Source of the DNA: Legionellales bacterium
Lineage (GTDB): Bacteria; Pseudomonadota; Gammaproteobacteria; Eutrophobiales; Eutrophobiaceae
Length of the DNA: 46,641 nt
Reading direction: 5' to 3'
Assembly (NCBI GenBank): GCA_002721165.1
Contig: PBJS01000009.1
Coordinates: forward strand, 70,124 to 116,764
The translations under genes and the position numbers were made by a program. This document shows positions 9,903 through 23,583 of this stretch, piece after piece; position 1 is the first letter of the stretch; each line of letters opens with the position of its first letter. The notes under the pieces are model-generated. The model saw only the letters and a list, made by a program, of their open reading frames with translations, was not told where the DNA came from and did no database searches.

Positions 9903-10610
9903 ATGAATTCTAAACGCATATCATTGCCTCAAATACCATTTGAATTTGGCAATTTTCAGAAAATAGATTTCACCTCGTTTATTGAGGGCGAAAATCAAGA
10001 TTTATTAGATTTTTTGAACACAATGACTAAAAAAAAGAAAAACGATTGTCTTTATATTTGGGGTTCTCAGGGCACAGGAAAAACACATTTATTACAAGCA
10101 GCGTGTAAACAAGCAGATGATATGAATTCTCAAGTTACATATATTCCATTAAAACAATATGAAGAGTTCGACTCTGAAATATTTAATGGTTTAGGAAAAT
10201 TAGATCTAATTTGTGTCGATGACCTTGAATTTATTTCTGGTAACCTAGAGTGGCAGCAGCGTTTGACTCTACTTTATAATGAAATTAGAGATAATAATAA
10301 TTCAATTATAATAAGTTCTACTTCTTCTCCAAAAAATATAAAAATTGAACTCGATGATCTTAAATCTAGATTAGTTTGGGGGCAGGTCTATAAAATAAAA
10401 CCACCCAATGATGAGTTAAAAATTGAGATACTAAAGAGAAAAGCGTCAGAACGTTCATTCGAGCTTAGTAAAAGTGTAGCAGAGTTTCTTATACATCGAA
10501 CTGATAGAGATCTAAATTCTTTAATAAAAATTCTTGACGTTATAGATCATTCATCGTTAGCGGCGAAGCGAAAAGTGACAATACCTTTTGTTAAGAAATT
10601 AATAGATTAA
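9903..10610 (+). CDS. hda: DnaA regulatory inactivator Hda
   Basis: AAA+ GSQGTGKTHLL, VDDLE, DLKSRL.WG; N-terminal clamp-binding-like QIPFEF; synteny with purM/DUF2066. Confidence 0.92.
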   Translation: MNSKRISLPQIPFEFGNFQKIDFTSFIEGENQDLLDFLNTMTKKKKNDCLYIWGSQGTGKTHLLQAACKQADDMNSQVTYIPLKQYEEFDSEIFNGLGKLDLICVDDLEFISGNLEWQQRLTLLYNEIRDNNNSIIISSTSSPKNIKIELDDLKSRLVWGQVYKIKPPNDELKIEILKRKASERSFELSKSVAEFLIHRTDRDLNSLIKILDVIDHSSLAAKRKVTIPFVKKLID

Positions 10611-16059: not shown

Positions 16060-17596
<1,537 letters not shown>

Positions 17597-20671: not shown

Positions 20672-21373
20672 ATGAATAGTACTTATCAACAAAAATATTT
20701 AAAAGAGATTGGTATTACAGTATGGTCGGAAAAAAAACTAAGAAGTATTAAAAATATTGAAGCCGATACTCAAAATTTTTCTTTAGCGAATAAATTATTA
20801 GATGAAGAATTAGGCCAAGAATTGGGCCATCTTGCCAGTGAGGTTGAATCATGCAAACAGTGCGAATTATATAAATCAAGAACAAAAACCGTTTTTGGTG
20901 TTGGCAACAAGAATGCAGATTGGTTAATTATTGGTGAAGCACCGGGGGCAGAGGAGGATCTCAAAGGAGAGCCTTTTGTTGGACGCGCAGGAAAATTATT
21001 AAATGCAATGTTTCTTTCTATGGGGTTACAAAGAAAAGAAGTGTTTATTGCTAATATATTAAAGTGCAGGCCGCCAAAAAATCGTGATCCAAAATTAGAA
21101 GAAGTAGAGACTTGTGAGAAATATTTAAAGCAACAGATCGAATTAATTCAGCCCAAAATTATTTTGGCACTTGGGAGAATTGCAGCTCAAAATTTATTAA
21201 AAACAGATACGCCTATTGGTAAAATGCGTGGGAATTCTTATCTTTATCCAAACAGCAATCTACCTGTGGTTGTTACTTACCATCCGGCATATTTACTTCG
21301 TTCGCCCACTGAAAAACGCAAAGTATGGGAAGACCTGAAATTAGCTAAGAATATATTTAGAGAGTCAGCATGA
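20672..21373 (+). CDS. Family 4 uracil-DNA glycosylase (Fe-S) with psi-like N-terminal extension
   Basis: [36 protein letters not shown] motifs, with four cluster cysteines present. Confidence 0.92.
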
Positions 21374-21849
21374 GTGCAGTTATCAAAACAAGTGATATAT
21401 ATATCAGACCGATGGTAGAACAGGATGTCACTTCTATTATTAGCATCGAGAAGAATGCATATGATTTTCCATGGGGCCAAACAATTTTTCAAGATTGTTT
21501 GCGTTCAGGTTATAGTTCTTGGGTTATTGAAAATAATCAAACTTTAATCGGCTATGGTGTTATGTTAATTACATCGGACGAATCACACATTTTAAATCTA
21601 TGCGTTCATCCTGATTATCAATCAATGGGAATTGGTAAGCAATTGTTAGAACATTTTCTAGGTTTAGCTGAAAGACATAATATACAAAGGGTTTTTTTAG
21701 AAGTTAGACCAACAAATTTCAAAGCCATTAGCCTTTATACAGGTATGGGTTTTAATGAGATAGGTAAACGCCGTGATTATTATCCAACAAAAATTGGGCG
21801 AGAAGACGCACTGATTTTAGCTAAAACGTTATTGAAAGAAGATTTATAA
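21370..21849 (+). CDS. rimI: Ribosomal protein S18-alanine N-acetyltransferase
   Basis: GNAT: FPW, HILNLCV....Q..G.G, FLEVR.TN..AI.LY...GF, RRDYYP...GREDA; ATGA overlap with udg. Confidence 0.93.
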   Translation: MSAVIKTSDIYIRPMVEQDVTSIISIEKNAYDFPWGQTIFQDCLRSGYSSWVIENNQTLIGYGVMLITSDESHILNLCVHPDYQSMGIGKQLLEHFLGLAERHNIQRVFLEVRPTNFKAISLYTGMGFNEIGKRRDYYPTKIGREDALILAKTLLKEDL

Positions 21850-22803: not shown

Positions 22804-23583
22804 ATGAATATACTCGTTTTTGATATTGAGACAATTCCGGATATTGACTCAGGTAAAAAGATTTTTAATCTAGACGATCTTAGTGAGGAAAATGTTGTAC
22901 AAGTAATGCAAAATCATCGTTACCAACAAAGCGATGGCAAAACAGAATTTTTACAACTTTACCTACATAAGATCGTATCAATATCTGTTATTTTAAAAAC
23001 AAGTGATAAAATAAATGTATGGTCACTAGGAAATAAAAGTTCGTCTGAAGCAGAATTACTTGAACATTTTTATGAGGGAATAGAACGATACACCCCCACA
23101 CTTGTATCTTGGAATGGAAGTGGTTTTGATTTACCCGTCATGCATTATCGATCGCTTATACACGGCGTTGTTTCTCAACGCTACTGGGAAAGTGGTGACG
23201 GTGATCAATCTTTTCGTTGGAACAATTATTTATCTCGTTTCCATAGTAGGCATACAGATCTAATGGATGTTTTGTCAGGATATATCCCTACTGCTAAAGC
23301 ACCACTAGATAAAATCGCTACTATTTTAGGCTTCCCAGGAAAAATGGATATGAGTGGTGGAAAAGTTTGGGAAAAATATAGAGCTGGTGATATAGAGTCT
23401 ATTCGTAACTATTGTGAGACTGATGTACTTAATACATATTTAATTTATATGAGGTATCAATTAATACGAGGAAAATTAACGAATGATTCATATATTGAAG
23501 AATGTAATCAAGTACGTGAAATGCTAAAAAATAAAAAAAAATCGCATCTAGAAGAATTTCTTAAAGCCTGGCAAGATAGTTAA
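22804..23583 (+). CDS. Predicted 3'-5' exonuclease (PolB-exonuclease-related family)
   Basis: VFDIETIPD, SWNGSGFDLPV..YR, H.DLMD, GFPGK..M.G..V, YCETDV.NTY. Confidence 0.85.
   Translation: MNILVFDIETIPDIDSGKKIFNLDDLSEENVVQVMQNHRYQQSDGKTEFLQLYLHKIVSISVILKTSDKINVWSLGNKSSSEAELLEHFYEGIERYTPTLVSWNGSGFDLPVMHYRSLIHGVVSQRYWESGDGDQSFRWNNYLSRFHSRHTDLMDVLSGYIPTAKAPLDKIATILGFPGKMDMSGGKVWEKYRAGDIESIRNYCETDVLNTYLIYMRYQLIRGKLTNDSYIEECNQVREMLKNKKKSHLEEFLKAWQDS

Follow-up and report, generated by a model that had tools for sequence, protein, structure and literature searches.

A family-4 uracil-DNA glycosylase with a psi-type N-terminal peptide at the holD position: a candidate ancestral form of the clamp-loader subunit psi

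Introduction

The N-terminus of psi, the HolD subunit of the bacterial clamp loader, is its clamp-loader-binding element (PMC3197488), and the site at which it docks lies in the clamp-loader collar, which has a single psi-binding site (PMC11044049). Psi proteins are cryptic to sequence searches (PMC3197488, PMC8879598), and psi is 'missing' from many genomes that contain chi (PMC3197488). The psi of Pseudomonas aeruginosa, as Jarvis et al. 2005 are cited in PMC8879598 and PMC3197488, is one such cryptic form, of 278 amino acids (aa), in which a conserved N-terminal peptide is followed by ~100 residues of disordered linker and by an enlarged core (PMC3197488, PMC8879598). The present text concerns a gene for a uracil-DNA glycosylase (UDG) in a stretch of 46,641 nucleotides (nt) from a Legionellales bacterium (contig PBJS01000009.1; the whole stretch is here called the window), which is situated where holD is situated in E. 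coli, and whose product, UDG-psi for short, starts with what looks like the docking peptide of psi. Psi allosterically stimulates the clamp loader, the Pseudomonas psi had to be identified biochemically, and to our knowledge no origin for psi has been known so far.

The UDG fold has been coupled to the replisome in other settings, in some of which it has ended as a purely structural component. In vaccinia, the UDG D4 is a component of the processivity factor, and this role is independent of catalysis (PMC1936997). Phage family-A DNA polymerases have a UDG-like domain at their N-terminus (9QHS, found here in both sequence and Foldseek searches). Eukaryotic UNG2 associates with PCNA and RPA, and archaeal UDG with PCNA. 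In all of these the partner is a clamp, a polymerase or A20 rather than the clamp-loader collar, and the docking motif is a different one; the recruitments are independent evolutionary events and none involves the clamp loader or psi. A search of full-text literature, in which few subscription journals were covered, gave no paper connecting psi or HolD with a UDG, and an earlier description is possible.

The reading argued for here, with a probability of about 0.7, is that UDG-psi is a bifunctional, replisome-tethered family-4 UDG that would represent an ancestral-type form of psi, with psi its decayed descendant. A sequence-only reading of the window had raised the possibility of an ancestral or bifunctional psi, an iron-sulphur (Fe-S) UDG tethered to the replisome, and the sequence comparisons described below speak in favour of that interpretation.

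A psi-type peptide at the head of a glycosylase

E. coli psi starts MTSRRDWQLQQLGITQWSLRRP, as the sequence-only reading had correctly stated. A word-indexed search for HolD gave Enterobacteriaceae only; the diversity came from a representative search with a HolD profile in HMMER, from which 240 clusters and then an alignment of 81 HolD sequences were obtained. In that alignment L9, G13 and I14 are the nearly invariant N-terminal positions, with W17 and R20 also in the consensus, and at an offset of 1 they correspond to L10, G14, I15, W18 and R/K21 of UDG-psi. The N-termini of several Vibrionales psi proteins come very close to the UDG-psi pattern, those of Vibrio sinus (YLKEMGISEWQL) and V. 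diabolicus (QYLHEMGISTWEL) and also of Photobacterium among them, and annotated Vibrio psi proteins start YLKEMGISEW or QYLHEMGISTW.

How improbable is such a match by chance? When the UDG family was aligned to HolD with hhalign, residues 1-30 fell on the psi N-terminus (P=2.4e-5), and when N-termini only were compared, in a 71-species alignment, P was 4.9e-10 with a reversed control of 0.18, so that the match to psi first noticed as L-x-x-[IL]-G-I-T-x-W-S holds at the level of the family. A hidden Markov model (HMM) made from HolD N-termini only, run against 9,117 six-frame open reading frames (ORFs), gave 48 matches at E<=1, 45 of them UDG ORFs (hypergeometric p=4e-94). In the reverse direction, a 25-column profile made from UDG N-termini only was run against 177,635 PDB sequences and had as its top two matches the psi peptides 3gli_O (E=0.016) and 9oyg_J, whose structures were solved bound to the clamp loader, with full-length psi chains also among its matches. 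The N-terminal peptide of UDG-psi is, as judged by these comparisons, a psi peptide and not a chance match. A candidate of another kind, a beta-clamp-binding motif of the QL[SD]LF type at the same N-terminus, was rejected by inspection.

The homologues listed, at least 120 with 63-99% identity, have a common architecture and are 229-248 aa long, save for one truncated at 171 aa. They retain Q-Q-x-Y-L-K-E-[MI]-G-[IV]-x-[VI]-W-x-x-[RK], and the 30-45 residues that follow vary in both length and sequence; Y9, L10, G14 and W18 are invariant in the alignment termed A2. A scan with one genome per GTDB species yielded 80 loci, from Steroidobacteraceae, Woeseiaceae, Arenicellales, Chromatiales, Methylococcaceae, Competibacteraceae, Acidiferrobacterales, Thiodiazotropha, the cultured Thiothrix eikelboomii and others. 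Conservation of the motif among UDGs upstream of rimI, on which the sequence-only reading had staked its case, was found in ~76 of these 80 species; a strict regular expression, in frame at the N-terminus, is matched by 70, and most of the remaining loci have a near-variant of the motif or run off their contig. Over 71 sequences the majority residue accounts, on average, for a fraction of 0.56 at residues 5-22, 0.23 in the linker and 0.72 in the enzyme domain, and the positions conserved best in the peptide are those just named for psi, with Y9 in addition (L10 99%, G14 93%, W18 92%, Y9 85%, R/K21 82%, I15 80%). In the AlphaFold2 (AF2) model of UDG-psi the predicted local distance difference test score (pLDDT) is below 50 at residues 13-44, and a helix is placed just ahead of G-I-x-x-W, at residues 3-12, as it is at residues 4-11 in E. 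coli psi. The linker that had been noticed ahead of the first C..C is present, though from the peptide to C-x2-C it measures ~38 residues rather than ~35.

Gene position tells the same story. In E. coli, holD immediately precedes rimI, as the sequence-only reading had said and as a check confirmed, and the two genes overlap; the arrangement in the window is alike: the TGA stop of UDG-psi (21371-21373) shares the letters ATGA with the ATG of rimI (21370). This overlap and the start peptide quoted for the ORF in the sequence-only reading can both be read directly in the window. Downstream rimI, on the same strand and mostly at -3 to +100 nt, was found in 74 of the 80 GTDB loci. The UDG-psi gene is the positional orthologue of holD, translationally coupled to rimI. 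What is shared with E. coli psi (HolD; PF03603; 1EM8, 3SXU, 3GLI, 8GIY) is, then, the N-terminal L-x-x-[LMI]-G-I-x-x-W-x-x-R followed by a flexible segment, a gene that adjoins and overlaps rimI, a collinear order of secondary structure and a C-terminal P-x-x-[KR]-[KR]-x-[LV]-W-x-x-[LI] helix. E. coli psi, of 137 aa, lacks the Cys cluster, GEAPG, HPA and the Asn, and ~45% of the UDG core is absent from it.

The glycosylase domain

Behind the linker the protein is an otherwise canonical family-4 UDG, as had been noted from the letters and as the model searches bear out. TIGR00758 matches it with 231.3 bits (cut-off 125.3) and PF03167 with 135.2 bits (cut-off 24.3), and the closest solved relative is the Thermus thermophilus enzyme UDGA, 1UI0 (E=7e-44). 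All family-4 residues are intact, namely C61, C64, C132 and C148, G88-EAPG, F102, N128 and H204-PA; the four Fe-S cysteines do not vary in A2 and line up with those of the T. thermophilus enzyme. The UdgX model, TIGR03914, stays under its cut-off (157.4 bits against 189.95). The AF2 model is of moderate confidence (mean pLDDT 69.8), and in Foldseek it matches 1L9G, 1UI0 and 4ZBX with E of ~1e-16 to 1e-18 and a target-normalised template-modelling (TM) score of 0.81-0.85, the values for 1L9G and 1UI0 specifically being E ~1e-18 and 0.82-0.85. By these criteria the window protein is a full member of family 4, and the enzyme is, to go by its residues, apparently an active uracil-DNA glycosylase.

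The solved family-4 enzymes (1UI0, T. maritima 1L9G and S. tokodaii 4ZBX) have the same domain, fold, Fe-S cysteines and motifs A and B, and their identity to UDG-psi is roughly half over the aligned core, or 41-43% in the Foldseek alignments. What they do not have is the psi-type peptide or the linker: going by the alignment ranges, they begin ~5-20 residues ahead of the first Cys. Source annotations give the homologues of UDG-psi only as 'uracil-DNA glycosylase' or, with a label related to SPO1, as 'DNA polymerase', no NCBIfam model sets these proteins apart, and residues 1-60 of the window protein match no Pfam or NCBIfam model.

From intact enzyme to short psi

A metagenome scan for a DNA pattern encoding Y-L-x-A-M-G-I-x-x-W-x-x-R gave at least 120 loci, and among those listed 45 encode UDGs with intact motifs. 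About 40 others (L089, L094, L095, L100 etc.) proved to be an unrelated membrane family of ~470 aa resembling spermidine synthase (PF01564). Its copy of the motif, YLFAMGIGSWLSRY, is internal, in a transmembrane stretch, and rimI is not among its neighbours; for these reasons, together with its match to PF01564, the family was set aside; the bare motif is unspecific unless N-terminal. The other listed loci have the peptide at the extreme N-terminus but fail the test for UDG motifs, and rimI comes next in nearly all that could be judged. Together the peptide-bearing proteins make up a graded series: intact UDGs, UDG-like proteins with residues lost, long 'cryptic' psi and short psi.

In the second of these grades Pfam still recognises the UDG domain, and ten loci each show a different catalytic or Fe-S loss. 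In L121 motif A reads GDAPT and the His has become Glu; L141 and L174 have TEAP- and Asn replaced by His; L142 and L126 have GGVPS and GAAPS; in L205, L177 and L147 motif A is destroyed; L131 and L200 have lost three or all four Fe-S cysteines, with His changed to Tyr; and in L154 the UDG domain is barely recognisable. (The count of ten takes in L121, L131, L141, L142, L147, L154, L174, L177, L200 and L205.) W219 of the C-terminal helix is kept in all of them but L154, and rimI is next in all but the same L154, which is on a short contig. Two Pfam models match L147, that for UDG with 53.6 bits and that for psi at the N-terminus (E=0.06). Judged by their sequences, the decayed loci have the look of natural stages on the way from an enzyme to a structural subunit.

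Further along are proteins of 256-267 aa (L087, L088, L109, L166, L112 and L119) whose linker is long and of low complexity and whose core lacks UDG motifs; several touch the Pfam psi model, and L119 scores above its cut-off with 29.9 bits. At the short end L090 and L105 are 156 aa, and L090, the one scanned, matches Pfam psi over its full length with 26.1 bits, again above the cut-off. A search seeded with L112 and L119, both of which are upstream of rimI, showed that the long form is the 'hypothetical protein' of Halomonas/Vreelandella, Saccharospirillum and relatives (P0430-P0549). As far as sequence can tell, P0430-P0549 are unannotated long psi subunits. The long psi of P. aeruginosa is grouped with them on its published description. 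Common to UDG-psi and long psi are the extreme N-terminal peptide, the long disordered linker, a core larger than that of E. coli psi and rimI downstream, whereas the long psi cores of Halomonas and Saccharospirillum have no catalytic or Fe-S residues, and some of them, unlike UDG-psi, pass the Pfam psi threshold.

As observations on these proteins in their own right, P0430-P0549 are 240-320 aa long, come from Halomonas/Vreelandella, Saccharospirillum and possibly Marinobacter, start RRHYLxAMGI..W, and end in a C-terminal helix of KRxLWP type (Halomonas) or QKAVAW type (Saccharospirillum), with a PF03603 match in only some of them. P0380, a psi homologue of 181 aa, has an insertion of ~45 residues between the second strand and its C-terminal KRLFW helix, a size variant which suggests that the psi core is plastic.

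Core homology with the peptide removed

Is the resemblance to psi confined to the peptide? The hhalign comparisons given here were made with cores only, unless stated, and without secondary structure; P-values for such small alpha/beta domains are to be read with their reversed controls, which span 0.058 to 0.61. A first run with shallow alignments (P=0.01) was superseded by more diverse ones. The decayed UDG-like proteins align with UDG-psi at P=2.8e-76 and with the HolD core at P=4.6e-5 (reversed 0.38). L112 and L119 align with the UDG core at P=2.3e-6 and with the HolD core at P=4.4e-7 (reversed 0.61), and 51 long psi proteins from Halomonas and Saccharospirillum do so at P=8e-6 over 153 columns (reversed 0.058) and P=2.1e-6 (reversed 0.54), respectively. 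With the peptide included, full-length UDG-psi and HolD align collinearly from end to end (Prob 93.5%, P=2.2e-7).

The register recurs across comparisons. A UDG-psi segment of 10 residues falls on psi VRLVMVANDLP (beta1), one of 21 residues on LVSDVLRALTVSPDQVLQLTP (helix and beta2) and one of 24 residues on QVASPALTDLRANPTARAALWQQI (beta4 and the C-terminal helices). The psi C-terminal consensus in the 81 HolD sequences is AKRxLWQQI, and W219 of UDG-psi is in the segment aligned with it; the sequence-only reading had likened the C-terminal 12 residues to psi NPTARAALWQQI, and it is exactly there that hhalign aligns the two families. A segment consisting of LKCRPP, a long helix and a beta3-helix unit is absent from E. 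coli psi and kept in long psi. Of the 95 hhalign-aligned positions, 74 (78%) have the same DSSP assignment in both AlphaFold models, and with the alignment shifted by 6 or more the agreement is 31-38%. The cores of UDG-psi and psi are, on this evidence, probably remote homologues (hhalign probability ~84-93%), and the graded series together with the core links through long psi lends support to the earlier suggestion that psi may be a decayed copy of such an enzyme.

A proposed role, and what speaks for and against it

The first ~22 residues of UDG-psi would insert into the collar of the DnaX complex (tau/gamma3-delta-delta') as the psi peptide does in 3GLI and 8GIY (PMC11044049), and the glycosylase, because of that insertion, would travel with the clamp loader at the fork. 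A flexible linker of ~30 residues would join the docking peptide to the C-terminal 180 residues, a [4Fe-4S] UDG predicted to flip uracil out of both single- and double-stranded DNA and excise it. Excision would in this way be placed near newly primed and newly made DNA, where clamps are loaded, and the peptide would probably supply the stimulation that psi gives to the clamp loader. Elsewhere in the gammaproteobacteria the same gene is proposed to have lost first its catalytic and Fe-S residues and later whole segments, so becoming the long 'cryptic' psi of the Halomonas, Saccharospirillum and Pseudomonas type and, last, the 137-aa psi of E. coli. DnaX binding, enzymatic activity and the direction of evolution are what we infer from the comparisons above.

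Why regard UDG-psi as the organism's psi and not merely as an enzyme on a tether? Relatives with decayed catalytic machinery keep both the peptide and the position beside rimI, and selection on the peptide is, to judge from these relatives, independent of catalysis. Because the peptide persists where catalysis is lost, a psi-like role for UDG-psi itself is likely, and it is on account of that role that UDG-psi is here taken to be the probable psi of its organism. The UDG form is found in early-branching orders, and reduced forms in Oceanospirillales and Pseudomonas-type bacteria and in Enterobacterales and Vibrionales. This distribution and the stepwise losses fit a descent from enzyme to scaffold, a direction proposed here from the pattern of forms. 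The wider proposition, that the clamp-loader psi is an active Fe-S UDG across much of the Gammaproteobacteria (Steroidobacterales, Woeseiales, Chromatiales, Methylococcales, Thiotrichales, Arenicellales and many marine lineages without cultured members) and that the inert psi of Pseudomonas and E. coli is its decayed descendant, is put at slightly better than an even chance.

A number of points weigh against UDG-psi being an ancestral-type psi. Support for its roles comes from computation, and uracil excision from single-stranded template at the fork would be hazardous. When residues 1-25 were aligned to HolD N-termini and a profile built, as had been proposed, the result was significant for the family, but the window protein alone reaches E=0.11 against the HolD N-terminal HMM, which is weak, and for that reason significance rests on the family and not on the single sequence. 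The psi model PF03603 has no match in the full window protein at E<=1, or in residues 1-63 at E<=10. Compared directly, the cores of UDG-psi and E. coli-type psi give P ~1.5e-3 with two competing registers (reversed 0.37). In Foldseek searches of the PDB the UDG-psi model does not find psi, nor the psi model UDGs, within the top 50, and the UDG-like fold which the sequence-only reading had attributed to psi is thus not reproduced in either direction. D56 and W88, which in psi hardly vary although they lie outside the peptide, are without a conserved counterpart in UDG-psi; chi binding, known for psi, is therefore unsupported for UDG-psi. A scan of window ORFs of at least 120 aa found no holC.

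Some of these points favour other explanations, each of which has to be weighed with the rest of the evidence. The peptide might dock a repair enzyme and do nothing else, in which case a separate psi, possibly unrecognisable, would supply the chi/SSB bridge from elsewhere in the genome, or the lineages concerned would manage without any bridge of chi and psi. Those features of psi that contact chi are unrecognisable in the UDG, the equivalents of D56 and W88 being unconserved; psi proteins are cryptic to sequence searches (PMC3197488, PMC8879598), and the loci were compared with flanks of at most 10 kb. However, in all lineages examined UDG-psi occupies the holD slot beside rimI, the one psi-binding site of the collar (PMC11044049) would be contested by two peptide-bearing proteins, and the retention of peptide and position by catalytically dead relatives implies a non-enzymatic, psi-like role; an enzyme that is tethered and nothing more is considered unlikely. 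Rather less likely again is that an ordinary family-4 UDG became fused to an existing holD, or took the place of its body, with the 5' peptide-coding end of holD alone retained, and that the psi core does not derive from a UDG and the core similarities are noise. Core links through intermediates (P=8e-6 and P=2e-6, their reversed controls being clean), the P=4.6e-5 of decayed UDG-like proteins against the HolD core, a register that recurs in independent comparisons, the 78% agreement in secondary structure, retention in long psi of the equivalent of the LKCRPP-helix-beta3 segment missing in E. coli psi, and a loss of catalytic residues that can be seen step by step all stand in its way, even though psi is a small alpha/beta fold for which chance matches come easily, Foldseek shows no psi-UDG link and the direct core-to-core comparison is of ambiguous register.

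It is very improbable that the motif is unrelated to the replisome, being a convergent amphipathic helix with a Trp for some other partner (a repair partner or RimI), or else a regulatory or translational-coupling feature. The motif is short, its single-sequence E-value is the weak one already given, and the pattern scan did also catch the spermidine-synthase-like family with its internal copy; but that look-alike is transmembrane and without a rimI neighbour, while the statistics at family level are strong and the conserved positions match those of psi one for one. Moreover, the motif of the UDG family is always at the extreme N-terminus, ahead of a disordered linker, as it is in psi (PMC3197488), and the same peptide heads L090 and L119, which Pfam recognises as psi.

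Implications of a UDG ancestry for psi

Ancestry in family-4 UDGs would give psi an origin. If the proposal is true, the 'missing psi' of chi-containing genomes is identified, and uracil excision is built into the replisome of many bacteria, a predicted physical coupling between base-excision repair and the bacterial clamp loader that was previously unrecognised. The graded forms would then be a natural series from enzyme to structural subunit, parallel to vaccinia D4. At a practical level, the N-terminal peptide combined with synteny to rimI is a simple finder for cryptic psi, and it re-annotates 'hypothetical proteins' of Halomonas and Saccharospirillum.

The locus and its surroundings

Table 1. 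Positions in the window of the UDG-psi gene, its parts and the adjoining rimI
Feature	Position	Strand	Basis or remark
UDG-psi gene, 233 aa + stop	20672..21373	+	ORF list, TIGR00758 and PF03167 matches
Psi-type peptide, residues 1-22, predicted DnaX-collar docking motif	20672..20737	+	Conservation, hhalign, PDB matches
Linker, residues 23-53, variable, predicted disordered	20738..20830	+	Majority fraction, pLDDT
Family-4 UDG domain, residues 54-233	20831..21370	+	1UI0 E=7e-44, Foldseek, residue table
C61-x2-C64, first two [4Fe-4S] ligands	20852..20863	+	Aligned to T. thermophilus UDGA Cys; invariant in A2
Motif A, G88-E-A-P-G92	20933..20947	+	Alignments, residue table
C132	21065-21067	+	[4Fe-4S] ligand
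C148	21113-21115	+	[4Fe-4S] ligand
Motif B (H204) and C-terminal helix	21281..21343	+	hhalign register; aligns with psi SPALTDLRANPTARAALWQQI
rimI	21370..21849	+	TIGR01575 133.3 bits vs cut-off 86.4; overlaps UDG-psi stop

The window is AT-rich (34.6% GC) housekeeping chromosome of an uncultured gammaproteobacterium from the sea. The upstream neighbour of UDG-psi is leuA, and past rimI come a PALP enzyme of cysM/cysK type and a PolB-like 3'-5' exonuclease; a 66%-identical homologue (L002-L005) has the same gene order of leuA, UDG-psi, rimI, PALP, exonuclease. The predicted exonuclease (22804-23583, + strand; PF10108, E=1e-91), two genes downstream of UDG-psi, is possibly another gene for DNA maintenance that the cluster has retained. 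Some 10 kb upstream, at 9903-10610 (+), is a homologue of Hda, with Hda_lid and DnaA ATPase domain, which has no evident tie to UDG-psi. An ilvC-like ORF at 16490-17596 (+), when taken from its first TTG, overlaps an ilvH-like ORF at 16060-16554 (+) by 65 nt; the real start codon is probably located downstream of that TTG, the Pfam match starting at residue 44.

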